A DNA stretch of 64,000 nucleotides. It comes from Clostridia bacterium. Its GTDB lineage: Bacteria; Bacillota; Clostridia; Christensenellales; UBA1242. The notes under the pieces were generated by a model. It made no database searches. It was not told where the DNA came from and worked only from the letters and a program-made list of their open reading frames with translations. Of the stretch, positions 29,827 to 47,896 are shown one piece after another. Made by a program: the position numbers and the translations under genes. How positions within the stretch are numbered: the stretch's first letter is position 1; every line of letters begins with the position of its first letter. Location: contig JAZNFA010000003.1 in assembly GCA_045588915.1 (NCBI GenBank), forward strand, positions 45,407 through 109,406, in the 5' to 3' direction.

Positions 29827-29868
29827 ATTTACAATTACGAACGTTTTCCTAATTTAAGTTGCTGACAA

Positions 29869-30075
29869 TTAACGAGCCATTTCGTGATTTTGATTTTGTA
29901 CGTTTTCTTTCAAAGCATTTTTATTCACTGGAATCAATTTAGTCTTACGCACTAACTTATTTGTTTGGTTACAGATATCACTGCATTTATTACTGCAACG
30001 AACATCCATATTGTCCAAAACACCTGATTCAACTAAATCTAACATTTCTTCATTATTTAATTCAAATTTTGCCAT
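29869..30075 (-). CDS. small hypothetical protein (68 aa, three Cys)
   Basis: SD AAAGGAG upstream. MAKFELNNEEMLDLVESGVLDNMDVRCSNKCSDICNQT.... Last gene of a four-gene small-protein operon. Confidence 0.55.
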   Translation of the reverse strand: MAKFELNNEEMLDLVESGVLDNMDVRCSNKCSDICNQTNKLVRKTKLIPVNKNALKENVQNQNHEMAR

Positions 30076-30104
30076 TATTAACTCCTTTATTTTATTAAGT
30101 AAAT

Positions 30105-30326
30105 TTACAAATTCATCATATTAGCAACAGTCGATTGAATTTCTACTCCCGAAAGTTCACCAACTTCCAATACGTCTAAACCTTCTTGACTAGCTTCAAT
30201 CATTTCTTCACGTAATTTCTTTGCTTGGAAGTCACGTTTTAATGCTCTCTTCAATGAAGTATCCTTATTAAACTCTCTTAGTTTATGTAATTTTTTATAA
30301 TGCTTTGCTCTTTTTTCATTACTCAT
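30105..30326 (-). CDS. small hypothetical protein (73 aa, basic N-terminus and acidic C-terminus)
   Basis: ATGA overlap with the upstream ORF, with an SD inside that ORF. Confidence 0.55.
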   Translation of the reverse strand: MSNEKRAKHYKKLHKLREFNKDTSLKRALKRDFQAKKLREEMIEASQEGLDVLEVGELSGVEIQSTVANMMNL

Positions 30327-30586
30327 TTTATTTTATCTCCTTTTTCTTCTTGACTTATTTCCACAGTAACGGTATTTGTTTTCTTTCTTAAACTCGCTAA
30401 ACGAAAAGCACCACTCATTAAACAACGTAATTTTCCAAAAGTTGAACCACGAACATCTTCTGAAATTTCTCCTGATATAACACCATCGACAATTTGTTCT
30501 AATTCGATTTTGTTATTTAGTGCCTTTTTAGCTTTTGCATAACCTTTGTTACGCATTTTAATCAAAGTAAGGTCGCAATTATACAT
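30323..30586 (-). CDS. small hypothetical protein (87 aa)
   Basis: In-operon ORF. Start uncertain (M1 or M11). Confidence 0.45.
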   Translation of the reverse strand: MYNCDLTLIKMRNKGYAKAKKALNNKIELEQIVDGVISGEISEDVRGSTFGKLRCLMSGAFRLASLRKKTNTVTVEISQEEKGDKIK

Positions 30587-30596
30587 TTTCTTTTAA

Positions 30597-30962
30597 TTAC
30601 TTCCCAATATCGATTTGTGGTTCAAGGTTATTTGTTTTTAACGTGGTTTTCTTGAAATCAGTGTTTAACGAACTAAGTTTATGTTGGTATTGAACTTCTG
30701 GTAGTCGGTTACGTTTTTTCAATGATATCAAAATCTCTTTAATCAATTCTTTCAATTCATTAACGTTACTTAATAATTTTTTCACACCGTAACGTTCTGG
30801 CCGTAAACTATGCACCACATCAGATTTTACTTTTAATAAGAGAGCTTCGTTTTTTGCCACTTCGGCCATACGAAAATCATCCCATAAAATATCACGCACC
30901 ATCTTCTTGATTAAATAATGTAATTCTTCTTCTGCTATTTCTTCACTATAAGTTTGATACAT
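30597..30962 (-). CDS. small hypothetical protein (121 aa, helical)
   Basis: First gene of the operon. SD AAGGAG (30974-30969) lies upstream. Confidence 0.55.
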   Translation of the reverse strand: MYQTYSEEIAEEELHYLIKKMVRDILWDDFRMAEVAKNEALLLKVKSDVVHSLRPERYGVKKLLSNVNELKELIKEILISLKKRNRLPEVQYQHKLSSLNTDFKKTTLKTNNLEPQIDIGK

Positions 30963-30988
30963 AATTTACTCCTTTTGTTTGACTTGTT

Positions 30989-31018
30989 ATCTTATCATAT
31001 TTCAACAAGCAAAGTCAA
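30989..31018 (-). promoter_or_regulatory. promoter of the four-gene small-protein operon
   Basis: Minus strand: TTGACT (31018-31013), 18 nt, TAAGAT (30994-30989). A leader with SD follows. Confidence 0.55.
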
Positions 31019-33707: not shown

Positions 33708-34524
33708 CTTTAATTCACGCAGCTTATTTGCCCTTCCTTATTTAATCTATATGTTCATTTTTGTTGTTGTTCCCTTGTTTATGTTACTTGGGTACGCATT
33801 CTTTGGCGACGGTAGTTTCTCTTTCGCAGAAGTTTCAGCTTTCTTCACTGATAGCAGCCAATGGGCAACTATCGGTCGCAGTCTTCGCATTGCTTTAACA
33901 GCTGCTTTAACTTGTATTTTAATCGGTTACCCACTTGCTTATGCAATTTCTAAAATTCGCTCAAAAACAGCTCAATATATGGTCTTAATGGCTTTGGTTG
34001 CTCCAATGTGGATTAACGGCTTATTACGTACCATTGCTTTAAAAGATTTGGTAACCTTGATTGATACTTTCTTTATGGAAAAACTTGGTTTTTCATTAGG
34101 CTTTGAAACTGGCGAAACCTTATTAACTTTAGGTTTAATCATCGACTATTTACCATTTATGTTAATGCCAATCTATTTGGTAATTACCGGTATTCCTAAA
34201 TCCTATTTGGAAGTTAGTGCCGACTTAGGCGCTTCACCATTCATCACTTTTACTAAGGTTGTTCTTCCTTTATCAATGTCAGGTATTATCAGTGGTTTCT
34301 TAATGGTTTTCACCCCTGCTGTTTCCACCTATTATATGAGTGAATACTTGGGTAACCAAAGCACCTTTATGATTGGTGAACAATTAAACATTATGTTTAC
34401 GAAAGACAATAAATCTGGTGCAGCCGTCATTGCTTTGGTACTTTTGGCTTTGGTTGGCTTGTCCGTGTTTATTGCAAACTGCCTTTCACGTATTGGCAAC
34501 AACAAAAAAGGAGGTATTGCCTAA
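33694..34524 (+). CDS. potB: ABC transporter permease (PotB-like)
   Basis: Six-TM binding-protein-dependent transport permease. Start re-picked to MKKINFNS. Confidence 0.8.
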   Translation: MKKINFNSRSLFALPYLIYMFIFVVVPLFMLLGYAFFGDGSFSFAEVSAFFTDSSQWATIGRSLRIALTAALTCILIGYPLAYAISKIRSKTAQYMVLMALVAPMWINGLLRTIALKDLVTLIDTFFMEKLGFSLGFETGETLLTLGLIIDYLPFMLMPIYLVITGIPKSYLEVSADLGASPFITFTKVVLPLSMSGIISGFLMVFTPAVSTYYMSEYLGNQSTFMIGEQLNIMFTKDNKSGAAVIALVLLALVGLSVFIANCLSRIGNNKKGGIA

Positions 34525-36795
34525 ATGGGAATGACTTTAATTTTAATCGTTATGGCAATTGTTTATTTGCCGATTCTCTTACTTATTTTCCTATCTTTCA
34601 GCGACGGTCTTGGATTTTACGTTCAGTTATTTACTACCACAGAATATATGACAGCTGTTGGTAACACACTGCTCATTGCTTTTGTTGCGTCTTTAATTGC
34701 AACAATTATTGCGACAATGGCAGCCACCGGTATCTTGTATTTAGGCAAACGTACCCGTGCCATTACAATGGCTGTCAACCAATTACCGGTCATTAACGCC
34801 GACATTGTTACATCTTTCGGTTTGGTTTTGTTATTCGTTGGTTTAGGAATGACCAACTTTGGTTTACTGAAATTATTGTTAGCTCACATCTTAATTGCTT
34901 TACCATTCTGCTTGTTGACTATTTTACCAAAAATGCGTCAGCTAGATGCTAACTTAATTGACGCTGCGTTAGACTTAGGTGCTTCACCTTTCAAGGCATT
35001 TACCAGCGTGATTATTCCACAATTAGTACCAGCAATGATTCAATCATTCTTACTGGGTTTCACTTTGTCATTAGATGATTTTGTTATTACACAATACAAC
35101 AACAGTGGCGTTTCGACTATTTCGACCGTAGTTTACGGTGCAATCGCTCGTCGTGATATTCCCGACGCTTTCAAAGCCTTAACCACGATTATCTTTGTTG
35201 TAATTCTCTTAGTCTTAGTTGTGATGAACTTGAATGCAGCACGTGTCCGTAAAGGAATTAAACTTAACAAAAAAGTTATTGCAGGAATTTTAGCAGGTGT
35301 TATGTTGCTCACTGGTCTTGGTGTAATCCCAGTTATTATTACAAACCTCACTCCACGTTCATTAGTTTTAAAAGTTTACAACTGGGAAGAATACATTGAA
35401 ACCGAATTATTGGACGAATTTACCGATTACTACCGTGAAAAATTAGCAGAAGACGGTGTCAAAAACGCAGACAAATTCCATGTCCAATACCATACTTTTA
35501 CCGACAACGAAGAACTTTACAGTAAAATCAATACTCAACACGCCGATTATGACTTAATTTTTCCATCCGAATATATGGTCGAAAAAATGGCACAAGACGG
35601 CTTATTGCAACCAATTAAAGAAAGCCGTATCACCGAACCAATGAATGAAACAATCTTGGCTCGTACCTCAGCTTTTACCACCGTTTACGATGAAAACAAC
35701 AACCCAATTGACAACCAAGTTTGGGCAATTCCTTATATGATTGGTACGGTCGGAATTATGTACGACACCATGGTCATCGACGCAATGGAAGAAGAAACTG
35801 GCTTTAGTTTATCTGACTTTGAAGATATCTTGAAAGAATATGGTTTCGGTATCTTGTTTGGTGAAGGTGGTACTACTGCTTATAAAGGTCGTATTACTAT
35901 GAAAAAATCAGCACGCGACTCGATCGGTATTGCGATGATTTACAGCGAACAACGTAAAAGTGACGAACACACCGTAGCCCAAGCAAACTACTTGGTTGGT
36001 CAAGGTGAGAACGAAAACTACGACAACACGATGTTGGAACAAATCTTAAATATGGACGGCGAATATTTGATTGACGCAGCACGTGAAGTTTTAATGGAAC
36101 AAATTCACACGATGAACCCATTTTACGAAAACGACAACGGCAAAAAATCTTTTATCAATCCAGAAAATGATGACTTCGCCTACGGCTTATATTGGAGCTG
36201 TGACGCTGGTACAGCAATGTGGGAACTTGACGAAGCCGGACACGATAATTATTTACGTTTCTATGCTCCCCAAGGTACTAACTTATGGACAGATAACTTT
36301 GCAATTCCAACTTACGCACAAAATACCGACGCAGCTTATGAATTTATCAACTTTATGTTAAACCATGAAAATGCCGCACGTAACATTGATTACGTCGGTA
36401 GTGAAATGGTGGCTGTTGGTGACGCTATTGATTTCTTAAAATATGACGAAGAAGAAGGTTACGGTGTACCAGTGCCTGGTGAAGAAGAATATGATATTTT
36501 TGACGCCGACACAAACTGGGCTTGCACCATTTTCCCAACTCAAGACAACATCAACTATTCGGCAATTATGCACAACTTCGACAAACAAAAAGAAAAAGCA
36601 GTCAACAGTTTAATGGTCGACGTCCAAAACAAAGCTGCCCAACTCACAGAAGACGAAGGTAAGAGCATTAACTGGTTCTTGGTTATCATTCTTATCTTAA
36701 CGGTAGCAGCGTTTGCTTGGTGGCTTATCTACAAACTCACCCACCGACGCCCACGTTTCAAACCGACACCACTGCTCCCAATAAAAACCGAATAA
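34525..36795 (+). CDS. fused ABC permease (PotC-like) and polyamine-binding protein (PotD-like) with an extra C-terminal TM helix
   Basis: Residues 1-260 are a permease (ASPFKAFTSVIIPQL). From ~285 the sequence is PotD-like (LKVYNWEEYI...YDLIFPSEYMVEKM). The last ~40 aa contain the helix INWFLVIILILTVAAFAWWLIY. Confidence 0.8.
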   Translation: MGMTLILIVMAIVYLPILLLIFLSFSDGLGFYVQLFTTTEYMTAVGNTLLIAFVASLIATIIATMAATGILYLGKRTRAITMAVNQLPVINADIVTSFGLVLLFVGLGMTNFGLLKLLLAHILIALPFCLLTILPKMRQLDANLIDAALDLGASPFKAFTSVIIPQLVPAMIQSFLLGFTLSLDDFVITQYNNSGVSTISTVVYGAIARRDIPDAFKALTTIIFVVILLVLVVMNLNAARVRKGIKLNKKVIAGILAGVMLLTGLGVIPVIITNLTPRSLVLKVYNWEEYIETELLDEFTDYYREKLAEDGVKNADKFHVQYHTFTDNEELYSKINTQHADYDLIFPSEYMVEKMAQDGLLQPIKESRITEPMNETILARTSAFTTVYDENNNPIDNQVWAIPYMIGTVGIMYDTMVIDAMEEETGFSLSDFEDILKEYGFGILFGEGGTTAYKGRITMKKSARDSIGIAMIYSEQRKSDEHTVAQANYLVGQGENENYDNTMLEQILNMDGEYLIDAAREVLMEQIHTMNPFYENDNGKKSFINPENDDFAYGLYWSCDAGTAMWELDEAGHDNYLRFYAPQGTNLWTDNFAIPTYAQNTDAAYEFINFMLNHENAARNIDYVGSEMVAVGDAIDFLKYDEEEGYGVPVPGEEEYDIFDADTNWACTIFPTQDNINYSAIMHNFDKQKEKAVNSLMVDVQNKAAQLTEDEGKSINWFLVIILILTVAAFAWWLIYKLTHRRPRFKPTPLLPIKTE

Positions 36796-36796
36796 C

Positions 36797-36826
36797 AAAA
36801 GACGCACCAATCCGGTGCGTTTTTTT
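36797..36826. terminator. bidirectional intrinsic terminator (pot operon / paralog P1)
   Basis: ACGCACC-aatcc-GGTGCGT followed by a T run. It overlaps the P1 stop codon. Confidence 0.75.
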
Positions 36827-37778
36827 AAAGTGAATTTTTAATATCTAAATCCAATAACTGTGAATTATTTTTAAACTTCTTGCATATTTGTTGTGCTTCA
36901 ACCAATAAGCATTCATATTCAAAACCCAAACATTCTACTTCATTTTGCAAGTTTTTCATTTCCGTTTTGGTTAAATTTTTTTTGTTATCATTATTACCCA
37001 AACGATTGATGATATCACGATGTTGATTTTGGTATTCACTGTAATATAAAGTTGACCAACGTGCATATAAGATATTCGCAAGATTTACTAACTTCTTCCA
37101 TTGTCTCGGCATTTTTTTGGCAAAAACACCGTCAGCACTTAACAATTGATTGACACCAGACAAATGGAAAGTATTCGCAAAAGTTTGTGCCATAACCTTG
37201 TCTTGCCATACGCCCTTACACATTTCCACACCAACTTCGGCATGGTAAGAGTCAACGCCCAAATATTTCATCGCCCCAATAATCCGATTCCGAAATAACT
37301 CACTATATTCTGGGTCACAACACTCAATTGTTTTTTCAATACTTTTCATATAAAAATCATCAACATCGGCATTTAACGTAATGCTTGCATAAGCACTTGC
37401 TAGATTATATTCATATTGACAACGTAACGCATCAAACTTTTCCGAACTTTCAATATAACTTTCAAAATAACAAAGTGGCAAACGTTTCACAGCTAATTGA
37501 TTTTTGATTGGAATCCGTGGATTATTCACATAGTAAGCATCGCAGATTTGTTCAAAATAACGAGCCAGCCAAGCCGCATCACGTGTGCGATATGGTAAAA
37601 AAGCTTTATTATAATAACTAACAAGGATTTTATTTTTTGGTGTTAAACCTTTTAAATTATTTAAAATATATTCTTGTTTGGGAAAAACAGCAGGCAAACA
37701 CGCATCTAAAAGTTCACTTACTTTCAGGTGTCCACTTTGAAAATTTCTCGCCTTAATTTGAGTTAATTTATTCATCAT
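36825..37778 (-). CDS. paralog P1 of an unrecognised family (317 aa)
   Basis: Shares the motif blocks LPYRTRDAAWL, KFDALRCQYEYNLASAY, DDFY, MKYLGVD and TFANTF with the four upstream ORFs. Confidence 0.7.
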   Translation of the reverse strand: MMNKLTQIKARNFQSGHLKVSELLDACLPAVFPKQEYILNNLKGLTPKNKILVSYYNKAFLPYRTRDAAWLARYFEQICDAYYVNNPRIPIKNQLAVKRLPLCYFESYIESSEKFDALRCQYEYNLASAYASITLNADVDDFYMKSIEKTIECCDPEYSELFRNRIIGAMKYLGVDSYHAEVGVEMCKGVWQDKVMAQTFANTFHLSGVNQLLSADGVFAKKMPRQWKKLVNLANILYARWSTLYYSEYQNQHRDIINRLGNNDNKKNLTKTEMKNLQNEVECLGFEYECLLVEAQQICKKFKNNSQLLDLDIKNSL

Positions 37779-37788
37779 AATGAATACC

Positions 37789-38709
37789 TTAAATATTTTT
37801 CCCTTGTGTGTCGCTAATTTGGCGATGGTTCACTTCACGTGCAACTTCATTCACAATTTTGTTATATTCTGTATGCGCTTGACGCACTTCGGCACTTAAT
37901 TTGTACGCTTGTGCCGAACTGATTTTCATATTCGCAGTCGCAGTTCCCACACGGTCTATCGTATCTTTGTGTTGATCATAATGTTTTTTTTCACGTTCCA
38001 ACATCCAAAGCTGGAAAAATTTTAATTCTTTACTTGCAAAACTTTCCCATAATACTGGGTTATCAATACTCAAATTTAAACGCTGTTCTCTGTTAATTTT
38101 GCCAATATTGTTTTGCTCAATACGATTATAGAATGTTTGATGCATTGTTTTATGATGCCATAAATCCAAGTTACGTTCGATATGCTCTTCAGTTGCACCA
38201 TAACTTAACCCAAGGACCATCATAACCTTAGCAACCTTTTCCGGGAAAACTTGATCAAGGTTACGATTTTTCATAAAATTTACTTTTTCTTTTTTGCTTA
38301 AGAAAAAGTCGTCAGAATTTTCGTCCAATAATTTTTTGATGTATGCTCTTACTAAATTATTTTCATATTCTTTACGCAAAGCATTAAACTTCGCTGAAGT
38401 TTTGATATAATGTTTAACACTATCAAAAGAGATTTTTATATCTTTCAAATCACATTTAAATTTTGTCATCGCCATAACATATTCAGCCAACCAGTCATCG
38501 TCATTGATATGAAAAGGCAAAAAGTTAACATTATAGATAAATGTATATTTTTTATCTGCCATATTCAAATTATCTAAAGTTTGCGTAATAAAAGCTTCCG
38601 ATGGAAATAAACCTTGTAAAGATTTATCCAAAGTCATAAATAATTGTTGTTCGTATATTTTTAAATGTAATTTATCAAAACCGTTTAATATCTTCTGCTT
38701 TAATTTCAT
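37789..38709 (-). CDS. paralog P2 of an unrecognised family (306 aa)
   Basis: LPFHINDDDWL, KFNALRKEYENNLVRAY, DDFF, TFYN, NMK. Has its own promoter. Confidence 0.7.
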   Translation of the reverse strand: MKLKQKILNGFDKLHLKIYEQQLFMTLDKSLQGLFPSEAFITQTLDNLNMADKKYTFIYNVNFLPFHINDDDWLAEYVMAMTKFKCDLKDIKISFDSVKHYIKTSAKFNALRKEYENNLVRAYIKKLLDENSDDFFLSKKEKVNFMKNRNLDQVFPEKVAKVMMVLGLSYGATEEHIERNLDLWHHKTMHQTFYNRIEQNNIGKINREQRLNLSIDNPVLWESFASKELKFFQLWMLEREKKHYDQHKDTIDRVGTATANMKISSAQAYKLSAEVRQAHTEYNKIVNEVAREVNHRQISDTQGKNI

Positions 38710-38714
38710 CCTGC

Positions 38715-38744
38715 ATTATAGCGAAGTTCCCCACTTAATGTCAA
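38715..38744 (-). promoter_or_regulatory. P2 promoter, leaderless geometry
   Basis: Minus strand: TTGACA (38744-38739), 18 nt, TATAAT (38720-38715), 5 nt, ATG (38709). Confidence 0.65.
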
Positions 38745-38767
38745 GACGACAATACGTGTTTTTCCAT

Positions 38768-38806
38768 AAAAAAAACTTGTTTTCGGAAAATCCTACTCAC
38801 AAGTCT
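38768..38806 (-). terminator. intrinsic terminator after P3
   Basis: Minus strand: GACTTGT-18 nt loop-ACAAGT followed by T8. Confidence 0.55.
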
Positions 38807-38822
38807 TTTGCAATTGATTTTG

Positions 38823-39818
38823 TTATAAATTAATCGTTGGTTCGATTGGCTTTGGTTCTCTAATTTGTTTCAAGATTGGGAATCGATTATCACATTCACG
38901 TAAACTTGCCTTGTAAACATCAATCATTTTTACATTATTTTGACGTAAGATTTCAGCTTTCTTTGGACTCATTTTCATATTTGCATTAACTTTATTTAAA
39001 CGACGGAAAACTTCGCCGTATTCTTGATATTCACTATAATCACGATAAGCATTCCAATCTTCATAAAGTTTAGTTTCCATTTTTTGCATTGCCTTCAATA
39101 CATTTGGTTGATTGTCTCTTAACCAAGCGTGGTCGTTTTTGTACAAAACACGATCCGGATTAACATTGTTCATAAAAGCAATTCTTCTTGCTTCTGGTTG
39201 CCAAATATCACTGTTTAAAACAATACTATCTTGAATAATCTTATCGTCGATACCCAAAAATTCCCCCATCTTGACCGAACGATTACGAATAATCCAATCA
39301 TAACTAATACTATTTTTTACACTTGCTTTTGCGCTAGCACTGGTGAAAAAGTCACCCACATTATCATCTGCCCCTAATTTGATACAACCTTTCATTAAGC
39401 TGTATTGATATGCTTCACGATTTTTATTGAATAAAGTTGAAGTTGCAACATATTTTTCAAAAATCTCAGCTTTAATTTCTGGTAATTCACTGTCAGCAAC
39501 GTTTTTCTTTTTATTTTCTAAAAGACTGTTTCTTGTTTTTAATTTACGGCAAATACTGTAAACATTTTCAATAAACTTAGCCAACCATTTTTCGTCATTG
39601 ATATGGAAAGGTAACAATCCCATTTCGTAATTATTTTGAGCATTTTTATTTTCACGAGTAATTGTTTTTAAATTAACTTCAAGAAATTTTTCGCTAGGAA
39701 AAAAATATTTATTGCATTCATCCAAGATTGCAAAAGCTTCTTTCATTTCTTGCTTATCTAATTCTTCCATAGTATTTTGAAAATTTTTTTCCAAAGCTAA
39801 ATGTTTTAATTTTTCCAT
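38823..39818 (-). CDS. paralog P3 of an unrecognised family (331 aa)
   Basis: LPFHINDEKWL, YVATSTLFNKNREAYQYSL, GDFF, FLGID, NMK. Confidence 0.7.
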   Translation of the reverse strand: MEKLKHLALEKNFQNTMEELDKQEMKEAFAILDECNKYFFPSEKFLEVNLKTITRENKNAQNNYEMGLLPFHINDEKWLAKFIENVYSICRKLKTRNSLLENKKKNVADSELPEIKAEIFEKYVATSTLFNKNREAYQYSLMKGCIKLGADDNVGDFFTSASAKASVKNSISYDWIIRNRSVKMGEFLGIDDKIIQDSIVLNSDIWQPEARRIAFMNNVNPDRVLYKNDHAWLRDNQPNVLKAMQKMETKLYEDWNAYRDYSEYQEYGEVFRRLNKVNANMKMSPKKAEILRQNNVKMIDVYKASLRECDNRFPILKQIREPKPIEPTINL

Positions 39819-39823
39819 ACTAT

Positions 39824-39853
39824 ATTTTAACTTACTCTACTTTTAGCTGTCAA
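39824..39853 (-). promoter_or_regulatory. P3 promoter, leaderless geometry
   Basis: Minus strand: TTGACA (39853-39848), 18 nt, TAAAAT (39829-39824), 5 nt, ATG (39818). Confidence 0.65.
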
Positions 39854-39901
39854 TAACTGTACAAAAATATTTAAACTTTTTTTATCAGTTTTTTTATTTG
39901 A

Positions 39902-40888
39902 TTATTTATTCAAATTGTCATAATCAAGATTTACCAAGTTATTAAAGATAACTGTTTGGTACGCTAAATCATATTTGCGACTCTTTAAACGTAATTCTTC
40001 AAGCTTGTCAGTATCCATTTTCATCGCCTTACTCATAACACCGTACTTATTCATCATACGTTTGTTTTTATCATAATATTCTTTTTCTTTGATATTAACC
40101 CAATTTTCCATACTGTCAGTTTTCATTTCCGACAAAACTCGCCAAGCTTGCACATCGTGTTTTTTTAACATTGTTAAATTAGGTACACTATATAAGTTAT
40201 TTCTGTTGATAAAAGTCTTACGCAATGTTGAACGCAACCAAATTCCCGTAGTTGCAGTTAATGCAATTTCAATATTCTTTTTCGCAATTCCGATGTTTGT
40301 CATCATTTGCATAATTTCAATTGGAAAATTTTTGGCAAAATTAACATCTGTTTCTATCGATTTTCTATTTGCTTCGTTGAAAAAAGCATCAGGTTGATTA
40401 GTAACAATCCATTTCGCAATGTAAGCCTTCACAAAATCTTGTTCGAACTGAGAACGACGTGCCTCAAATTTTGGTGATTTTTGGACATACGCTAAAATTG
40501 TTTTCGTATTGACTGGCGCAGATTCATAAGCTGGAGAATAATAAAAAGTACTTTTTTGTAAATTACGGTAAGGCAACATTTCTTGAGATTTTTCCTCACC
40601 AAAAACAGCTTGGTCTTTTTTCAAACTGACGATTTGCGCTAAAACCCTTTCGATAAACATCGACAACCATAAGTCATCACGAGTACGAAATGGCAAAGTT
40701 TTAAAGTGGAAAATAAAATCTGATTTTCCATCATCCTTTGTTAAACCTTTAACAATCTTTTTCGTTGTTTCTTGATTGGGGAAAATATCATCCAAATATT
40801 CATCTAATAATTGAAAATCCTTAGCTAATTGTGATTTATTCACTAAACCATTTGTTGAAAACTTTGATACAATTTTTTTTAATTTCAT
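39902..40888 (-). CDS. paralog P4 of an unrecognised family (328 aa)
   Basis: LPFRTRDDLWL, YVQKSPKFEARRSQFEQDFVKAY, DAFF, TFINRN, MKMD. Confidence 0.7.
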   Translation of the reverse strand: MKLKKIVSKFSTNGLVNKSQLAKDFQLLDEYLDDIFPNQETTKKIVKGLTKDDGKSDFIFHFKTLPFRTRDDLWLSMFIERVLAQIVSLKKDQAVFGEEKSQEMLPYRNLQKSTFYYSPAYESAPVNTKTILAYVQKSPKFEARRSQFEQDFVKAYIAKWIVTNQPDAFFNEANRKSIETDVNFAKNFPIEIMQMMTNIGIAKKNIEIALTATTGIWLRSTLRKTFINRNNLYSVPNLTMLKKHDVQAWRVLSEMKTDSMENWVNIKEKEYYDKNKRMMNKYGVMSKAMKMDTDKLEELRLKSRKYDLAYQTVIFNNLVNLDYDNLNK

Positions 40889-40893
40889 AGATT

Positions 40894-40923
40894 ATTATAC
40901 TCCTTCCAAATTCCAAAAGTCAA
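40894..40923 (-). promoter_or_regulatory. P4 promoter, leaderless geometry (an alternative reading is GGAG as an SD 11 nt upstream)
   Basis: Minus strand: TTGACT (40923-40918), 18 nt, TATAAT (40899-40894), 5 nt, ATG (40888). The -35 hexamer is also the 3' arm of the AGTCAA-13-TTGACT hairpin behind P5. Confidence 0.55.
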
Positions 40924-40953
40924 GATTGTCCGATTTTTGACTAGTCTTAGAAA

Positions 40954-41904
40954 TTAACGTAAAACTAATTCAGGTTGTTTATTTTTTTCAGAATTTAAAA
41001 TATTTAAACAATCAACAACTTGTTTTTTGTACTGATAACTTAGTTTTTGCGTATTAACAACTAATTTATATTCACTATCAGCATTGTTTTTCATATTTAC
41101 TGTTGCTGGCTTTGTTTGCTTAATTACAGATTGATGTCGTTGATTGTATTTAATATCACACAAAGCATTCCAACTTTGAAATAATTGATTTTCAGTATTA
41201 ACTAAGTTTCTTGCTGCAACCGGAGATTTCTTTAACAACATTGAACGTTCTTTCTGGCTTAAAAGTAATCTTTTTTGATTAAAGACATTAACAAATGTCA
41301 ATTTTCTCGTTGTGTCATACCACAAATCTTTTTTCAATTCGATTGTGTTTTCAACCACATCTTCATCCAAACCAAGATATTTCATTGCATTAACAACACG
41401 TTCACGGAATAAAACATCATATTCCGGACTTTTAATTTCGCGTTTTTTGGTAGCAATATCAGCATAAAAATCATCACAACAAGTCTGAGCAACTTGCAAA
41501 TAAGCAGTAACTAAATTACGTTCAAAGTCACCACATTTCTTTTCAAAAACTGGCGATTCTTCCACATACATCCGAATATAATCAACCGGAATGTATTTTA
41601 GTTCTTCCGTTGCAATACCTCTTTTGGTTAAATTGTAAATGCTCTTTAAATCATCATTGTATCTTTTGTTGATGTATTTGACTAACCATTCGATGTCGTG
41701 AAGACGAAATGGCAAATAGCGTTGATCATAAATACGCGTAATTTTTTTATCATCAGTTTTAAGCACTTTCATTACTTCCAATGCAAAAGCCTTACCTAAA
41801 AACAGGAAATCTAAATGATTATCTAAAATACTAAAATATTCGCTCTTCAATTTTTGTAAATGAGCTTGTTGAAACTTTTCTGGTAATATATTTTTTAATT
41901 TCAT
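40954..41904 (-). CDS. paralog P5 of an unrecognised family (316 aa)
   Basis: LPFRLHDIEWL, YVEESPVFEKKCGDFERNLVTAY, DDFY, MKYLGLD, TFVNVF, NMK. Confidence 0.7.
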   Translation of the reverse strand: MKLKNILPEKFQQAHLQKLKSEYFSILDNHLDFLFLGKAFALEVMKVLKTDDKKITRIYDQRYLPFRLHDIEWLVKYINKRYNDDLKSIYNLTKRGIATEELKYIPVDYIRMYVEESPVFEKKCGDFERNLVTAYLQVAQTCCDDFYADIATKKREIKSPEYDVLFRERVVNAMKYLGLDEDVVENTIELKKDLWYDTTRKLTFVNVFNQKRLLLSQKERSMLLKKSPVAARNLVNTENQLFQSWNALCDIKYNQRHQSVIKQTKPATVNMKNNADSEYKLVVNTQKLSYQYKKQVVDCLNILNSEKNKQPELVLR

Positions 41905-41911
41905 TATTTAC

Positions 41912-41941
41912 ATTATAATTTATGCTAAAATTCAAAGTCAA
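41912..41941 (-). promoter_or_regulatory. P5 promoter, leaderless geometry
   Basis: Minus strand: TTGACT (41941-41936), 18 nt, TATAAT (41917-41912), 7 nt, ATG (41904). Confidence 0.65.
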
Positions 41942-41988
41942 TACACACCCAACAAAAACTTTGTCAATTTTTGACAAATTATCAAAGA

Positions 41989-42073
41989 TGGTGCGGCCGA
42001 GAGGGCTTGAACCTCCACATCTTGCGATACAGGATCCTTAGTCCTGAGCGTCTGCCAATTCCGCCACGGCCGC
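41989..42073 (-). tRNA. tRNA-Leu with encoded anticodon AAG (type II, long variable arm)
   Basis: Hand-folded. Acceptor GCGGCCG/CGGCCGC. D arm GCG-GAATTGGCAGA-CGC. Anticodon arm CAGGA-CTAAGGA-TCCTG, giving 34-36 = AAG and G37. Variable arm TATCGCAAGATGT. T arm GGAGG-TTCAAGC-CCTCT. 3' ACCA is encoded. Confidence 0.85.
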
Positions 42074-42139
42074 AATCACAATTAGCATATCAAAAAATGA
42101 ACTACCTGTAAAGCACGGCAACGGAAGTTTATTAAATTT

Positions 42140-43381
42140 TTATAATTGACTGTGGCGTACGACTTTTTGCACGGTTTCCCAATAATTAGCACGTTTAACA
42201 TCTTCCTGTACACGCACAGGGATTTCGGCAATCACTTTTCCATTATCGGTAACCAATACTTTTCCTAAATCCATTGATGTCGTTAAAGGTGCTGTGACTG
42301 TATCAGGAATTTCCAAAGCTAAGGCAATTTTTCCTGTTTGGTCTTTTCTGGTCAAATGATAGTAATTCGCAGCAGGATAAAGTGTCACTTGTTCGGCAAT
42401 CCCATTTTTTAAGTTGACCGTTTTTAATGGTTGACTTGCATCCACAATTAACTTATTTTCAAAATTTTGATAGGCATAATCTAACAAAGCACTACTTTCA
42501 TTGAAGCGTGTTTGACTGTTCGCCGCACCAATAATCACAGCAATCGGTTGCAAATCATCACGCTGGGCAGCTACCGTAATGCAATGTCCAGCTTCATTTG
42601 TAAAACCAGTTTTTCCACCCAAACAACTTTGATAACGACGAATCAATTTATTCGTATTCGTCAACCCAGTCACACGTCCCGAAGGGTGCGTTAAATCATA
42701 CATCCATACGTGATTAAAATCCCCATAGTGTGGTGATTGCATAATTTTTTGATACATTTTTGCCATATCACGTGCACAAGAATAAGCCCCCGTTGCTGGC
42801 AAACCGGTGCAATTCACAAAATTAGTATCTCGACAACCTAAGGCTTGCGCAAAAGCATTCATTTGTGTGACAAAGTTTTCCACTGAACCACTAATATGTT
42901 CTGCCAAAGCAACACAGCTATCATTCGCCGAAGCTACCACAATTGATTGAATCAAATCACGTACACTATATTCACTACCAGCATCCAAGAAAGCTTGACT
43001 GCCACCCATTGAAGCTGCACGTTCACTCACCATTACCATTTCATCCATCTTGATTTTTCCTTGCGCCAAAGCATCATAAACTACACCTAACGTTGCAACT
43101 TTGGTCATTGATGCAATTGGTAAATGTTGGTCAGCATTGTGCTCATATAATATTTTTCCACTTTTACCTTCCATCAAGAAACCAGCTTTTGCTGTAATTT
43201 TCGGAGCATTTGTTTGTTGTTCACTGTTTTGCGTATCTTTCGCTGTTTCGACAACTTGGGTTGGTGCTGTTACAGCACAATCATATTCTTTGCAACTTGA
43301 ACTACCGTGTGCTGTGACAAAATTACAAAGCGTTGCCACCGTTAAAGCTGTGATTAAAAATTTATTTGTTTTCATAAACAT
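42140..43381 (-). CDS. D-alanyl-D-alanine carboxypeptidase (PBP5/S11-like)
   Basis: Signal peptide. Active-site ASMTK, plus SAND and KTG (GGKTGFT) boxes. Start is probably the ATG at 43381 or 43375 rather than 43414. Confidence 0.88.
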   Translation of the reverse strand: MFMKTNKFLITALTVATLCNFVTAHGSSSCKEYDCAVTAPTQVVETAKDTQNSEQQTNAPKITAKAGFLMEGKSGKILYEHNADQHLPIASMTKVATLGVVYDALAQGKIKMDEMVMVSERAASMGGSQAFLDAGSEYSVRDLIQSIVVASANDSCVALAEHISGSVENFVTQMNAFAQALGCRDTNFVNCTGLPATGAYSCARDMAKMYQKIMQSPHYGDFNHVWMYDLTHPSGRVTGLTNTNKLIRRYQSCLGGKTGFTNEAGHCITVAAQRDDLQPIAVIIGAANSQTRFNESSALLDYAYQNFENKLIVDASQPLKTVNLKNGIAEQVTLYPAANYYHLTRKDQTGKIALALEIPDTVTAPLTTSMDLGKVLVTDNGKVIAEIPVRVQEDVKRANYWETVQKVVRHSQL

Positions 43382-43394
43382 AGTTTGCGAAATC

Positions 43395-44018
43395 TCATAA
43401 AGGTTTATACACAATTTTTCCTAAGACAGTCCAAAACACCAAAAATTCCAAAACACCCAAAACCACAGCAACTACAATTAACACCGATGCTCCATAGATT
43501 ACCGTTCCCCAAGGACGTTTTCCGACACACGTACGACAATAACTTCCCCATTGAAAAGCCCAAACTAATCCCACCAACAAAATTGCCGTCACTAATAACA
43601 ACCAGACAGTATAAAAAATGATGACCAAAATTGCTGGCAAACTGTAATAAAAGAAAACCCACCAAATTGCAACACTCAGCCAATAGCCGTGCATTAACAC
43701 AACAGGAAAAATCACCAAAGCTGTCACGCGCGATAGCATCGCCAAACAAAAAACCACAATTACTGGAATCGCAAGCGATAAAATACGTTGCCAAATAAAA
43801 CTACCAATACTTGACCCAATCGCCGTTGCATTTAAAATATTTCCGTCAATCAATTGATAGTTAATACCTTCAATGTCAACATTACCAATCACAATGGTAA
43901 CAATTCCTAAAACAGCACCAACCACACACCATACAGCCAACCAAATTAACGTGCGCCGATATTTTTTCCATTGCACACGCAGTTGTTCCACTAATCGGAA
44001 CCACCAAAGTGCTTGCAT
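43395..44018 (-). CDS. polytopic membrane protein (about 207 aa; SpoIIM-like in size and topology, unconfirmed)
   Basis: Five or six hydrophobic helices. Divergent from spoIVB. The start is ambiguous: GTG 44042 or ATG 44018. Confidence 0.45.
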   Translation of the reverse strand: MQALWWFRLVEQLRVQWKKYRRTLIWLAVWCVVGAVLGIVTIVIGNVDIEGINYQLIDGNILNATAIGSSIGSFIWQRILSLAIPVIVVFCLAMLSRVTALVIFPVVLMHGYWLSVAIWWVFFYYSLPAILVIIFYTVWLLLVTAILLVGLVWAFQWGSYCRTCVGKRPWGTVIYGASVLIVVAVVLGVLEFLVFWTVLGKIVYKPL

Positions 44019-44056
44019 AAATAATTTATATGAGTTTGCCACAAAATAAATGCGAT

Positions 44057-45184
44057 ATGAAATTGAAACAAAGTTTTCGTTTTTTGCGTGGCATATTGTT
44101 TTCAGTCATTGCCTTCAGTGTTTACGCTTTTTTAATCGTACCATTTGTGCACGGCATTACCACGCCAGATCGGATTGTTTTAACCCCCAGCGAATACGCC
44201 AGCCGTGCAGATGTTTCACCCGAAAATCTCACCAGCAGCGACCCCGAAACCGAAAAATATATCACGGTTAAATTATTAGGTTTCATCCCCATCAAAAAAG
44301 TCTTAGTTGATATTCTTCCCTTTGACACAATTATTGTCGGTGGAATGCCAATCGGTATTATGGGACAAATTGACGGTGTACTTGTCACAGCAACTACCAA
44401 CGATAAAACTTTACAAAAAGGCGATGTTGTCCATTCGGTCGACGGTATTTCAGTACAAACCTGCGAAGACTTCCTTAATGCAACCAATAACAAATCACAA
44501 GTAAACGTTGTCTTAACACGTAATGGCACCAAACTAAAACGCCGATTAAAAGTCAATCAAACCATTGATTTACGTGATACAACAAACGGCGTCGGTATCC
44601 TTACTTTTATTAACCCAGAAAACAATCAGTTTTCTGCGCTCGGCCATCAAATGACAGATTTTGAAACTGGCGCTAACGTTAATTTATCTGGTGGCGAAAT
44701 TCGCACAGTAAAAACTTACGGCATTATCAAAACACAAGGTAAACAAACTGGAGTTTTACAAAGTTCAATTCAACAAAACACACCAACCCAAGGTAGTATT
44801 ACCCAAGGAACAAACTTTGGTGTAAGTGGTTGCCTTACTCCGGACAGCACGATTTTAACAATGTGCGACACCACAATGCCCGTTGCCACACGTTATTATG
44901 TACAACCTGGCAAAGCAACTTTGCGCACATCATTAGACGGCACAACCATTGAAGAATTTGATTGCGAAATTTTAAAAACACGTTACCAAAACCGACGCGA
45001 TGATAAATCGATGGTCATCCGTGTTACCGACGAACGCCTACTCGACGCAACAGGTGGCATCGTCCACGGTATGAGTGGCAGTCCAATTATTCAAAACGGA
45101 CATCTCGTCGGCACACTCACCCACGCTATGACCCACGACCCAGCCAAAGGCTATGCCCTCTACATCGACTTTATGACATATTAA
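44057..45184 (+). CDS. spoIVB: SpoIVB-type (S55) sporulation signalling peptidase
   Basis: N-terminal TM helix, then a PDZ-like region. C-terminal GGIVHGMSGSPIIQNGHLVGTLTHAMTHDPAKGYALYIDFM matches the remembered SpoIVB catalytic block. Confidence 0.85.
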   Translation: MKLKQSFRFLRGILFSVIAFSVYAFLIVPFVHGITTPDRIVLTPSEYASRADVSPENLTSSDPETEKYITVKLLGFIPIKKVLVDILPFDTIIVGGMPIGIMGQIDGVLVTATTNDKTLQKGDVVHSVDGISVQTCEDFLNATNNKSQVNVVLTRNGTKLKRRLKVNQTIDLRDTTNGVGILTFINPENNQFSALGHQMTDFETGANVNLSGGEIRTVKTYGIIKTQGKQTGVLQSSIQQNTPTQGSITQGTNFGVSGCLTPDSTILTMCDTTMPVATRYYVQPGKATLRTSLDGTTIEEFDCEILKTRYQNRRDDKSMVIRVTDERLLDATGGIVHGMSGSPIIQNGHLVGTLTHAMTHDPAKGYALYIDFMTY

Positions 45185-45201
45185 CTATTACCTAACAACT
45201 T

Positions 45202-46383
45202 TTAACGTTTTTTCTTGTTTCTTTTTTCAATTTCGGCATCAAGTGCTTGACCGATAGCTTCTAACGAGAAATCGTCTTCGGCAGGTTCGGTAATTGTTTC
45301 TGCTGTTGTGGCAGCTTCAATTACCGGTTCAACCTCCACTTCTGTTTCTTCTTCAGCTACTGGTTCGTTTGCTTGTCTTTCAGCTTCTTGCTCTGCTTCT
45401 TCTTGTTTTTTTATTTCACGACGTACATCAGCAGCTAAAATATCGTCGACCAAATAGTTGATAAACTGTTCTTTTTCTTCATCAGTTAATGGTGCTTCTT
45501 CAATTTCTTGATTTTCGGTTTGAGCTGTTTCCTCTACTGGTTCAGTTACTGGTTCGTCAACTGCATTTTCAGCTACCGGTTCCGTTGGAACTATTTCAGG
45601 TTCGACCGTTTCAGATTCTTGTGTAACTGGCTGAGGATTATTCATTTGTTCAATTTCAGCATCATTATTAACTGAGCGTAATTCAACTTTATTTTCAGCT
45701 TGTTTCTGAACAATGATATAATCACGAACTTCGACAACTTGTTCTTCGGTCAATTCACCCTTCGCATCAAACAAAGGTTTTGCTTGTTTGCCAAATTTAT
45801 CTGGGTAAGCATCCACCAAAATAAAAGGTTTAGTAATACTTAAAAAATTAATACTATTTTCTTTGAGCGCCAAAAAGATGGCATCACGGTAATTATTTTT
45901 TTCTTTGTTAAAACGTTGCAGGAACATCGCCAAAATTAGTTGTACGACAGGCATAATCAAAGCTAAACCAAGACCAATCATAAATGTTTTGGTAATTACG
46001 TTAGCAATTAAAGCAATCACAGCAATTAAAATTGATGCTGCTAAAATCAAGGTTGAAAAGTTACGCTGAGTTTTAATTCCACACGCACTGTCATATTCTT
46101 TGCGAGTCATCGCACGAACACCACCATTTTTAACGGCAATTGGATACTTACATTCATTTTCATCGAACTTACGCAAAAAGTCACGATATAAATATAAAGA
46201 TTCACGTTCTTTTGCATCTTCTGGAATAAAGTTAGCACGACGCCACAACTTGGCAATACTTGTTAAAGCATTAGCACAAAAATTCTTTTCAATTTCAATC
46301 CGACGGACAGCATTAAAAGCCCAAAAGATTGACAAAACAATCAACGCAATAATAAAGCCAATAATAATGAAGTTGTAAAACAT
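45202..46383 (-). CDS. membrane protein with a long acidic E/P/V/T-rich C-terminal region (393 aa)
   Basis: TM helices in the first 160 aa. The C-terminus carries low-complexity EPV/ETE repeats. Confidence 0.5.
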   Translation of the reverse strand: MFYNFIIIGFIIALIVLSIFWAFNAVRRIEIEKNFCANALTSIAKLWRRANFIPEDAKERESLYLYRDFLRKFDENECKYPIAVKNGGVRAMTRKEYDSACGIKTQRNFSTLILAASILIAVIALIANVITKTFMIGLGLALIMPVVQLILAMFLQRFNKEKNNYRDAIFLALKENSINFLSITKPFILVDAYPDKFGKQAKPLFDAKGELTEEQVVEVRDYIIVQKQAENKVELRSVNNDAEIEQMNNPQPVTQESETVEPEIVPTEPVAENAVDEPVTEPVEETAQTENQEIEEAPLTDEEKEQFINYLVDDILAADVRREIKKQEEAEQEAERQANEPVAEEETEVEVEPVIEAATTAETITEPAEDDFSLEAIGQALDAEIEKRNKKKR

Positions 46384-46448
46384 TTTAAACCCCCAAGTTC
46401 CTGCAATATTTTAACGGAAATTATCATAAATGGCAAATAAAATTGAGT

Positions 46449-47348
46449 TTAATTAACATTACCCAAAAAGATAATTTCAGTTTCTAAAAGTACACCTGTT
46501 GCTTTTTCTACTACATCCTGAATATGATACAAAACTTGTAAAATGTCGTGACAAGTCGCATTCCCCAGATTCACAATAAAATTACAATGTTGAGTGCTTA
46601 CCTGCGCCCCACCCACGGTATAACCACCCAAACCCAAATCTTCAATTACTTTACCAACATAGAACCCATCTTTTGGGCGTTTAAACACACTACCTGCGCT
46701 CGGTTGTCTGGGATGAGCACGTCTTTTTTGCACAATTTCTTGCATACGTGTTTTAATTTTTGACGATTCATCTTTGGTTAAACGGAAATACACACCCAAA
46801 ATCACAGCTGTTTTATCCATAAAACGTGAATGACGATAACCAAAATCTAACTGATTACGTGTTAAAGTTTTTACTTCGCCATCTTCCAAAACATCAACCA
46901 TTACCACAACATCACTGATACTATGCGCAAAAGCACCACAATTCATATAGACACCACCCCCCACCGTTGCCGGAATTCCGGTTGCCCATTCCAAACCACT
47001 CAATCCGTGCTCACACGCATATTTTACCACAGCACCTAACTTCGCCCCAGCATCAGCGTAAACAAAAACATCATTATGTTCAATGTTGGTAAAATTCAAC
47101 TTAATTACGACGCCATCAAAACCATCATCACTCGCTAAGATATTTGCCCCTAAACCTAAAATAAAATATGGATATTCTAAAAAGTCTAAAGCACTAATCA
47201 ATTTACATAATGCCGTTTTTGTTTCGACCACAACAAAATAACGTGCCGGGCCACCCACACGAAAAGTTGTCCAACTTGACAATGGTTCATTTCTTTTAAC
47301 GTTTTTCTTACCACAAATATGCTGTAAATAGTTATCTAAAATTTTCAC
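46449..47348 (-). CDS. murB: UDP-N-acetylenolpyruvoylglucosamine reductase
   Basis: FAD-binding TFRVGGPA...GLGANIL. SAGSVFKRP block. Confidence 0.92.
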   Translation of the reverse strand: MKILDNYLQHICGKKNVKRNEPLSSWTTFRVGGPARYFVVVETKTALCKLISALDFLEYPYFILGLGANILASDDGFDGVVIKLNFTNIEHNDVFVYADAGAKLGAVVKYACEHGLSGLEWATGIPATVGGGVYMNCGAFAHSISDVVVMVDVLEDGEVKTLTRNQLDFGYRHSRFMDKTAVILGVYFRLTKDESSKIKTRMQEIVQKRRAHPRQPSAGSVFKRPKDGFYVGKVIEDLGLGGYTVGGAQVSTQHCNFIVNLGNATCHDILQVLYHIQDVVEKATGVLLETEIIFLGNVN

Positions 47349-47896
47349 TAATCTATAGATATGCCACTACCAGGTCGAAGTATCTTAATTTGTGCCGGTA
47401 CTTGACTGTGGTCAAATTGAACTAAAGAACTGGCAACTTGTTTTAATTTACGACCACGTACCACTGCCACATCTTGTTCGGCAAACACCATTGCACCTTG
47501 TCGCCACGAAGTTATCACCGATTGTCCGTGTAAATTTGCACTTGTTGCCACCAAAGGAACTTTACACGCAGTCAAAAGTCGGTTCAACCAACCACTACGA
47601 ATCACACGCACAGCTTGTCCATTGATAATCACAGATGTCCGTTTTTTTAATAACATTCTTTTTTCTTCGGGAGTAATTTGTCCACAATGGAGCATCACAG
47701 CATTTATTGAAGGCAATAACCAAATTAACTGCGCATCGTTCGGTTTCCCTTTTGCTAATTTTACTTTTTGCACAGCATCTTGATTGAGCGCGTGACAACC
47801 AATCCCCCAAACAGTATCGGTTGGATAAACAATAACACCACCCTGTTTAACATAGTCTGCAATTTTTTTAATTTCGTGATGACGGAAAATTTTCAT
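47348..47896 (-). CDS. Sua5/YciO/YrdC family protein (TsaC-like threonylcarbamoyl-AMP synthase)
   Basis: YPTDTVWGIGC and ...VATSANLHG motifs. 182 aa. Confidence 0.75.
   Translation of the reverse strand: MKIFRHHEIKKIADYVKQGGVIVYPTDTVWGIGCHALNQDAVQKVKLAKGKPNDAQLIWLLPSINAVMLHCGQITPEEKRMLLKKRTSVIINGQAVRVIRSGWLNRLLTACKVPLVATSANLHGQSVITSWRQGAMVFAEQDVAVVRGRKLKQVASSLVQFDHSQVPAQIKILRPGSGISID

Follow-up and report, generated by a model that had tools for sequence, protein, structure and literature searches.

Here we describe an array of five tandem, strongly diverged genes, P1 to P5, in a 64,000-nucleotide stretch of DNA from an uncultured Clostridia bacterium (assembly GCA_045588915.1, contig JAZNFA010000003.1, positions 45,407 to 109,406 of the forward strand). 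We refer to the whole stretch as the window and number positions within it. A first-pass annotation, made from the sequence alone, had reported five consecutive minus-strand open reading frames (ORFs), with coordinates and lengths that our ORF listing reproduces exactly, and had placed them between a tRNA-Leu gene and a convergent pot operon; the position of the tRNA and a PotC-PotD fusion gene bear this out. Read in the direction of transcription, the locus is arranged as follows, the polar residues being the 16 that the family conserves:

41989-42073, minus strand: tRNA-Leu (AAG anticodon), bounding the array upstream
40954-41904, minus strand: P5, first array gene, 316 residues; derived paralog with 9 of the 16 polar residues
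39902-40888, minus strand: P4, 328 residues; derived paralog with 8 of the 16
38823-39818, minus strand: P3, 331 residues; derived paralog with 8 of the 16, C-terminus ...EPTINL
37789-38709, minus strand: P2, 306 residues; canonical array member
36825-37778, minus strand: P1, last array gene, 317 residues; derived paralog with 9 of the 16
34525-36795, plus strand: PotC-PotD fusion gene, convergent with the array, the other boundary

Among the homologous loci that we sampled, which carry L numbers, adjacency to tRNA-Leu is kept in L001 and L003-L005 and is absent from the arrays of L006 and L012, and we therefore treat the tRNA as context that lies outside the family.

The five genes are paralogs. 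In BLASTP, each of the ten pairs aligns almost end to end with 21-30% identity and a score of 60-120 bits, whereas none of 500 shuffled queries exceeded 29.6 bits; this supports the earlier claim that the ORFs are homologous and strongly diverged. P1 and P5, previously singled out as the closest pair, share that rank with P2 and P5, both pairs scoring 120 bits (30.2% and 30.0% identity). The motif blocks MKLK, LD..FP, LPF[RH]..D..WL, Y[IV]..S..F...R, W...F.N, a C-terminal W and NMK, which had been read by eye, are visible in the alignment. Sequence analysis also agrees with the first reading that the array proteins have neither a signal peptide nor a transmembrane-like segment. An internal duplication was considered and rejected (hhalign probability 0.2%), a search of the family proteins for repeat or coiled-coil architecture found none, and the only repeats detected in the window array were residual similarity between the paralogs. 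The proteins are predicted to be soluble, single-domain, all-alpha and about 310 residues long.

The proteins match nothing among curated families, solved structures or public annotations, as the description of an unrecognised family had implied. We took membership of a family to require a score that reaches its curated gathering threshold in Pfam-A or NCBIfam, and none of the five proteins attained one. For these, the best Pfam-A scores were 15.1 bits for CTD12 (cut-off 25) and 13.8 bits for Zot (cut-off 20.3), and the best NCBIfam score was 16 bits against a cut-off of 300. When 109 diverse members were searched singly against Pfam, the most recurrent family was DUF6530, with four of the 109 and a best E of 0.003; both this and CTD12 of the ABC-3C systems (E 0.032) were treated as noise, and we found no paper that mentions DUF6530. 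Ten longer family members gave only sub-threshold, non-recurrent Pfam matches. Against PHROGs the best E for the five proteins was 0.076, no component profile of PADLOC-DB v2 matched any of them at E <= 1, and profile searches of PDB sequences with alignments of 5 and of 109 members returned no match. The sole public name on any member is 'hypothetical protein [Clostridia bacterium]' (MBR4418416.1).

Structure prediction led to the same place. An AlphaFold2 model of P1, with the five paralogs as the alignment, was all-alpha at a mean predicted local distance difference test score (pLDDT) of 81.8 and a predicted template-modelling (TM) score of 0.76; a model of P2 built on 114 family sequences reached 94.8 and 0.89, with 15 helices, no strands, and long N- and C-terminal helices at residues 2-29 and 265-305. 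These confident models bear out the suggestion of a helical fold. Counting as a match in Foldseek anything at E <= 0.001 or TM >= 0.5, we obtained best E values of 0.97 for P1 against PDB (query-normalised TM <= 0.24), 0.24 for P1 against BFVD (<= 0.25) and 1.4 for P2 against PDB (<= 0.21), that is, chance-level matches to long-helix membrane proteins. The modelled fold accordingly has no known counterpart in the sense that Foldseek detects no relative in PDB or BFVD, and neither profile searches nor structural comparison matched a characterised housekeeping family. The novelty is at the level of family and fold.

The array also has a distinctive arrangement of expression signals, listed here in the direction of transcription, with promoter scores counted over the 12 consensus positions:

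41960-41978, minus strand: perfect 8-bp inverted repeat, TTTGTCAA-AAA-TTGACAAA plus T-run, z = -3.7, between tRNA-Leu and the P5 promoter
41912-41941, minus strand: P5 promoter, TTGACT-18-TATAAT, 11/12; -10 box ends 7 nt before the ATG
40894-40923, minus strand: P4 promoter, TTGACT-18-TATAAT, 11/12; -10 box ends 5 nt before the ATG
39824-39853, minus strand: P3 promoter, TTGACA-18-TAAAAT, 11/12; -10 box ends 5 nt before the ATG
38770-38809, minus strand: A/U-rich 11-bp stem plus U8 after P3, of terminator form, z = -0.9, like shuffled sequences
38715-38744, minus strand: P2 promoter, TTGACA-18-TATAAT, 12/12; -10 box ends 5 nt before the ATG
36802-36820, minus strand: G+C-rich hairpin plus T-run after P1, -12.8 kcal/mol, z = -3.9

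Within 36500-42400, the four highest-scoring promoter matches fall one in each of the spacers that precede P5, P4, P3 and P2, so the near-consensus promoters claimed for P2-P5 are present, at 11-12 of 12 matches to TTGACA-18-TATAAT. No Shine-Dalgarno sequence precedes any of these four genes, and with -10 boxes ending 5-7 nt before the ATG, leaderless mRNAs are predicted for all four, taking as candidates those genes that have no Shine-Dalgarno and whose start codon is no more than about 10 nt from a -10 element. P1, as had been noted, starts 10 nt after the P2 stop; it lacks a promoter of its own and is presumably co-transcribed with P2, and the last genes of L001 and L003 show the same coupling. 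Four predicted promoters and one P2-P1 pair are consistent with the view that the array consists mostly of separate transcription units. The hairpin after P1 probably acts as a terminator in both directions, serving the convergent pot operon as well as the array, and the repeat at 41960-41978 is probably the terminator of the tRNA gene, a role as operator not being excluded. Of the two hairpins previously reported after P3 and P5, the one after P3 has the form of a terminator but the stability of shuffled sequence, the one after P5 is not supported by the shuffle test (z = +0.44), and nothing convincing follows P4.

Promoter-abutting starts are kept in the family genes of L001-L004, L006, L012, L014, L015 and L022 and in eight of the nine genes of L005. 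Homologues in L023 and L017-L019 have ordinary Shine-Dalgarno leaders and the same MKL N-terminus, which corroborates the start codons assigned here. We rejected the leaderless geometry as a hallmark of the family, since it is a lineage trait that these Shine-Dalgarno-led members elsewhere do not share.

Mapping of the distribution and copy number of the family revealed a sizeable group. An exhaustive HMMER scan of 1.84 billion representative sequences returned 310 proteins at E <= 1e-3, 231 at E <= 1e-10 and 62 at E <= 1e-30, where the figure of about 310 counts clusters at 50% identity; nearly all are single-domain proteins of 280-370 residues, and all cluster representatives are unnamed. 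Two narrower searches returned less: a word-indexed homologue search gave 3-5 clusters per query (five in the first search), none with a name, and a degenerate DNA pattern for LPFHTRDxxWL gave two true short contigs and two chance matches. The family has so far been seen solely in uncultured gut Clostridia. The window lineage comprises 'Clostridia bacterium' metagenome-assembled genomes (MAGs) from the human gut, among them that of L003 (SGB_3457), whose P1 is 99% identical; further relatives are found in a different human-gut MAG and in buffalo caecum, and member genomes have 26%, 37-40% and 49% GC. Running the family hidden Markov model (HMM) over all fetched loci gave these copy numbers:

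Window: 5 copies
L001: 5 copies, on a 493-kb contig
L002: at least 4 copies
L003: 6 copies, in the window species, one split by a frameshift
L004: 9 copies, one truncated to 185 residues
L005: 9 copies
L006/L008: 5 copies
L012: 5 copies
L022: 8 copies
L023: 7 copies
L014 and L015: 2-3 copies, on short contigs
L019-L021: a singleton copy

Since L012 and L022 both belong to GCA_045538225.1, one genome carries at least 13 copies in two arrays. Copies per genome thus run from 1 to at least 13, and most sampled members stand in tandem arrays of 5-9.

The surroundings of these arrays bear on what they might do. In relatives of the window, the slot consists of genes for a SpoIVB-like peptidase, a 208-residue protein and a PBP5-type carboxypeptidase, then tRNA-Leu, the array and a convergent potCD-potB-potA operon. 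The L006/L012 arrays are of a second type, flanked on one side by an alkaline phosphatase gene and on the other by an acyltransferase/UppS-type cluster, with no tRNA. The singleton of L019-L021 (P0140, which bears the N-terminal module described below) stands among two NUDIX genes and genes for HTH-CYTH, Ppx-GppA and Ham1-like ITPase proteins; these nucleotide and polyphosphate neighbours come from one lineage and may be coincidence. In our sample of 14 loci, representing about nine distinct contexts in genomes of 26-49% GC, no gene recurs as a neighbour across array contexts. The neighbours include no toxin, secretion-component or integrase gene, no recombinase gene recurs among them, and the one known defence gene is the Type ISP restriction enzyme beside L022.

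Tandem diversification had suggested a role in immunity, as decoys or in specificity, and it is conceivable that the array is an orphan immunity or decoy repertoire in which each paralog neutralises a different toxin or senses a different phage protein. Strongly diverged tandem paralogs with separate strong promoters fit such a repertoire, as do copy-number variation and pseudogenes between strains, amino acid divergence much faster than that of the flanking genes, variable tails and accessory modules in distant members, and the array of L022, which lies beside a Type ISP restriction enzyme. Yet no toxin, LXG/Rhs/T6SS/T7SS, recombinase or defence gene recurs at the sampled arrays, and the proteins have no PADLOC or PHROG match. 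Metagenome and viral contig scans with the P2 group and viral contig scans with the P1 group found no homologue, nor did tblastn of P2 against phages and plasmids, although distant members on mobile elements may escape searches with these P1- and P2-group queries. Immunity proteins are also typically unlike proteins of about 310 residues with a conserved polar constellation, and the orthologue groups and their order are stably inherited, with no gene-wide diversifying selection. With vertical synteny and purifying selection (below), we consider the immunity or decoy interpretation unlikely. At L022 (contig JAZSQY010000097.1), the Type ISP restriction-modification enzyme (Eco57I/N6_Mtase/Type_ISP_C, positions 1-2454) precedes the pot-side eight-copy array and stands where the window has the PBP5-type carboxypeptidase; tRNA genes of L022 were not scanned.

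The family is undescribed, under selection and vertically inherited, with birth-and-death turnover. In a neighbour-joining tree, the five window genes define five orthologue groups that stand in the same order in L003, L001 and L002. The P4, P2 and P1 groups are also collinear with the nine-gene arrays of L004 and L005, which contain extra groups, and the P3 group is weakly so; members of the L006/L012 arrays mostly cluster apart. The ratio of nonsynonymous to synonymous substitution (dN/dS) is 0.13-0.36 in 17 orthologue pairs, compared with 0.12-0.13 for two flanking genes, and purifying selection of this order indicates that the genes are functional and not under gene-wide positive selection. 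By individual gene, dN/dS is 0.15 for P5 against L003, 0.21 for P4 and 0.14 for P3 in its orthologue comparison; P4 is the most strain-variable copy, at 71% amino acid identity to L003. Array orthologues nevertheless diverge much faster than their surroundings: between the window and L001 they share 47-56% amino acid identity (56% for P5) against mostly 75-98% for flanking genes, and between the window and L005 28-39% against 71-92%.

That the ORFs are non-functional, decaying, or an artefact of annotation or assembly is a possibility that these data already refute, and we regard its probability as negligible. It could draw on the low GC of the array, the lack of annotation anywhere, one frameshifted copy in L003, one truncated copy in L004 and the mosaic identity of MAG-derived sequences, but five intact ORFs each have intact orthologues in several independent assemblies, and the substitution ratios, the pLDDT of 94.8 and the conserved promoters all argue against it. 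As for decay, which the first-pass annotation had raised as a concern, it does not affect the genes overall, and single copies are frameshifted (L003) or truncated (L004).

Turnover affects whole promoter-plus-gene units, by gain, loss or frameshift. Compared with L003, the window is missing one such unit (about 900 bp) between P4 and P3, and from the promoter-proximal region on its spacer is that found in L003 between the extra gene and P3; this sixth L003 copy is itself frameshifted after about residue 167. The GC content of the array is about 30%, against about 38% in the flanks. GC at third codon positions (GC3) tracks the host (array/host: window 0.26/0.31, L005 0.30/0.44, L023 0.59/0.64), and GC at first and second codon positions is also below that of the host in four of five genomes, so we attribute the low GC to long residence and a composition rich in K, N, E and Y and not to recent acquisition. 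A recently acquired island at tRNA-Leu was likewise rejected, given conserved synteny and tRNA, the lack of an integrase or repeats, and GC3.

Between the window and L003, identity over 34426-46850 is mosaic, with about 99% over 34426-39812, 41069-42068 and 46451-46850. P4 is less similar (66-89%), and so is the block of housekeeping genes at 42069-46450 (69-86%, with a single 200-bp island at 96%). The mosaic reflects either frequent, genome-wide homologous recombination between diverged lineages or MAG chimerism. Hypervariation specific to the array was rejected, since the divergent blocks cover housekeeping genes too.

Conservation across the family points to what the canonical members may do. 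The conserved positions had been described as mostly aromatic or hydrophobic, which holds for the five window copies but not for the family, whose alignment conserves 16 polar residues at 71-94%. In P2 numbering these are H67, D70, R112, E116, D152, R156, E174, E178, R185, N195, R239, E240, Y243, Y244, H247 and D252, in addition to an aromatic core of F35, W73, F108, W184 and W235. Many are spaced i, i+3/4, i+7/8 on four helices, on single faces (for example R112/Y115/E116, D152/F155/R156, E174/L177/E178 and R239/E240/Y243/Y244/H247), and we read this helical spacing as a putative polar pocket. That canonical members conserve such a set of His, Asp, Glu, Arg, Asn and Tyr residues makes it questionable that the proteins are non-enzymatic, as had earlier been assumed.

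Most members of all lineages keep 12-16 of the 16 residues; two L014 copies keep all of them, and all seven copies of L023 keep 12-15. The window species is the most degenerate. P2 retains 13 of 16, together with 31 of 34 family-consensus positions and the top family-HMM score in the array (281 bits, compared with 239 for P5), whereas P1, P3, P4 and P5 keep 8-9 polar residues and 21-24 of the 34 key positions, the latter being the low end for the family. In L001, the P5 orthologue still carries 15 polar residues and the P1 orthologue 13. Losses are correlated, D152 with R156 in P4 and E178 with R185 in P3 and P4, and some of these residues may therefore be paired.

Several distant members carry additional parts. 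An N-terminal module of about 90 residues (YxVYDLxVIK...FICK...EVLT...PLSxYY) is found in P0123, P0128, P0140, P0150 and P0059, the last with two such modules and two core domains, and P0020, P0024 and P0034 have C-terminal tails with 2-5 YW[DN]THQPxxN repeats; many members end in ...[HR]TL or ...PTI[IN]L. Neither the module nor the tail repeats matched anything in PDB or Pfam searches, and a weak match of an accessory part to 5coz disappeared once a profile was used.

We propose that the array belongs to a family that is inherited vertically, evolves by birth and death and has a conserved site for binding or catalysis, and that its members act as independent variants, a tentative reading to which we assign a little less than an even chance. 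The family expands and contracts as whole promoter-plus-gene units are duplicated in tandem or lost. In this lineage, according to the model, each unit would be transcribed from its own near-consensus sigma-A promoter into an mRNA starting at or next to the AUG, with only P1, the last gene, riding along with P2. The polar pocket of canonical members may be catalytic, or may bind a metal or a charged ligand. P2 would keep that site and probably the ancestral activity, and P1, P3, P4 and P5, in which the site appears remodelled, would most likely be independently expressed variants of altered specificity or else non-catalytic relatives. The array would then encode individually dispensable, partly redundant cytoplasmic proteins, and would be neither an obligate operon-encoded complex nor a toxin-immunity or phage-defence module.

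Several points weigh against this proposal. The pocket is inferred solely from conservation and helical periodicity, and R112/E116 and D152/R156 could be plain intrahelical salt bridges, which the correlated loss in P4 would fit. Foldseek is weak for all-alpha folds, and a remote known relative may exist. One array, that of L022, adjoins a restriction enzyme. Finally, independent promoters are compatible with hetero-oligomers, and the five orthologue groups, whose order is fixed, might equally be non-redundant parts of a single assembly.

The retained orthologue groups and gene order make it a serious alternative, albeit one that we judge improbable, that abundant, non-redundant paralogs build a hetero-oligomeric assembly in the cytoplasm, be it a scaffold, a filament or the coat of a granule. 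The same five groups stand in the same order in the window and L003 and in L001 and L002, with at least three collinear in L004 and L005; near-consensus promoters suggest abundant products, the long terminal helices (2-29 and 265-305) could mediate association, and derived copies that have lost the polar site are what non-catalytic structural partners might look like. Obligate subunits are harder to reconcile with a range from singletons to at least 13 copies, with units lost or frameshifted within one species, and with genes that are predicted to be transcribed separately and not translationally coupled. All seven L023 copies keep the polar site, and the search for repeats, coiled coils or internal duplication found none.

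The charge of the window proteins raises a further alternative, namely that the family consists of regulators that bind nucleic acid, or of nucleoid-associated proteins, and lacks a canonical helix-turn-helix (HTH). The five are basic, with isoelectric points of 8.6-9.5, all-alpha and rich in conserved Arg, and each gene but P1 has a promoter of its own. Across the family, isoelectric points run from 5.1 to 9.7 and 27% of members lie below 6.5, so basic charge is not a family trait and was rejected as a sign of nucleic-acid binding. Neither Pfam nor Foldseek found an HTH or other DNA-binding domain, and apart from the hairpin after tRNA-Leu there are no conserved operator-like repeats. This alternative is a distant one, more doubtful than an assembly or an immunity repertoire.

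A bolder version of our proposal, which we think unlikely, is that a new all-alpha fold carries a new kind of pocket, either catalytic or binding a metal, a nucleotide or another charged ligand, and that 5-13 separately and strongly expressed copies per genome form a cytoplasmic specificity repertoire in gut Clostridia. Such a repertoire might, for example, sense or neutralise foreign proteins or small molecules and be unrelated to any defence or immunity system described so far. If the fold prediction holds, uncultured gut Clostridia contain a sizeable family with no described relative in sequence or structure. Lineage-restricted families of this sort are common in metagenomes; here, 5-13 strongly promoted copies under purifying selection, up to 13 family genes in a small genome, represent a heavy genomic investment, and the family is a tractable target for structural genomics and biochemistry.

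Promoter-abutting starts are not peculiar to the array within the window. Of 1,983 ATG trinucleotides, 8 show the geometry at a promoter score of at least 11/12, and all eight are starts of long ORFs: the four array genes, the HicB-like antitoxin, a 110-residue ORF of unknown function, a Sua5/YrdC-like protein and CvpA. At a score of at least 10/12, trigger factor, DegV and a phosphodiesterase are added. The ORFs outside the family are:

3420-3752, minus strand: 110-residue ORF
3816-4082, plus strand: HicB-like antitoxin
13713-14879, minus strand: trigger factor
20646-21488, plus strand: DegV
47348-47896, minus strand: Sua5/YrdC-like protein
53647-54213, plus strand: CvpA
56104-57264, plus strand: phosphodiesterase
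16344-17390 of L006: gene with the same geometry
17441-19531 of L006: gene with the same geometry

About 12% of window ORFs have the geometry at a score of at least 11/12, and cultured Clostridia are reported to have only about 2-4% leaderless transcripts (PMC9045289, PMC5171806). The window MAG lineage may, on this predicted geometry, use leaderless mRNAs unusually often, and frequent promoter-abutting starts matter for calling genes and predicting where they start in MAGs of this kind. The HicB-like antitoxin (PF15919, E 2.5e-8) is divergent to the 110-residue ORF, and both have 11/12 promoters abutting the ATG.

Some other features of the window deserve mention. The PotC-PotD fusion that bounds the array is a 756-residue ORF in which a BPD_transp_1 (PotC-like) part is joined to an SBP_bac_8/1 (PotD-like) part, with a hydrophobic end segment, and the fusion is conserved in L001, L005 and L022. 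Few bacteria have a tRNA-Leu with A34, which implies that wobble inosine is made in tRNAs other than tRNA-Arg(ACG) as well; a tRNA-Arg(ACG) gene also lies in the window at 63703-63779. Two AT-rich kilobases, 30001-31000 (GC 0.30) and 53001-54000 (GC 0.275), have few long ORFs; in the gaps 29827-30596 and 52772-53646 there is no ORF of at least 120 residues, and Rfam finds nothing.

How the array relates to known systems depends on which of its properties is compared. Orphan immunity arrays include tandem DUF600/SUKH genes downstream of LXG/WapA toxins in Bacillota and the acquired interbacterial defence (AID) islands of Bacteroidales. The present array resembles them in its tandem diverged paralogs, copy-number variation between strains and cytoplasmic products, and in that its derived copies have no obvious enzymatic motif. 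It differs in having no sequence or fold relation to them and no toxin or recombinase neighbour in the sampled contexts, in proteins of two- to threefold greater size that conserve a polar constellation, and in being syntenic and vertically inherited. Among all-alpha proteins of similar size, the candidates are ADP-ribosylglycohydrolase, Fic, HD-domain and terpene-synthase enzymes and regulators of the RNPP/Rgg type. The enzymes are likewise all-helical, about 300 residues long and built around a pocket lined by Asp, Glu, His or Arg; Foldseek, Pfam and PDB-profile searches gave no match to them, and their signature motifs are absent from the family alignment. RNPP/Rgg regulators, also about 300 residues, all-alpha and multi-paralog in Bacillota, have an N-terminal HTH and a tetratricopeptide repeat (TPR)-like domain; in the family Pfam found neither HTH nor TPR, and no RNPP structure was among the Foldseek matches. 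In mode of expression, the array recalls lambda cI, a leaderless gene when transcribed from PRM, and leaderless transcriptomes in Actinobacteria, with a -10 box 5-8 nt from the AUG, no Shine-Dalgarno and a predicted transcription start at the start codon; that likeness concerns how genes are expressed and not a protein family, and the geometry is shared with unrelated window genes. The alpha/beta-type small acid-soluble spore proteins (SASP, ssp genes) of spore-formers are 60-75 residues long, are expressed from sigma-G promoters and are scattered over the chromosome, whereas the array encodes proteins of about 310 residues, without homology to SASP, in tandem and behind sigma-A-type promoters. 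What the two have in common is a set of several paralogs with promoters of their own, partly redundant if our proposal holds, and passed on vertically within Bacillota.

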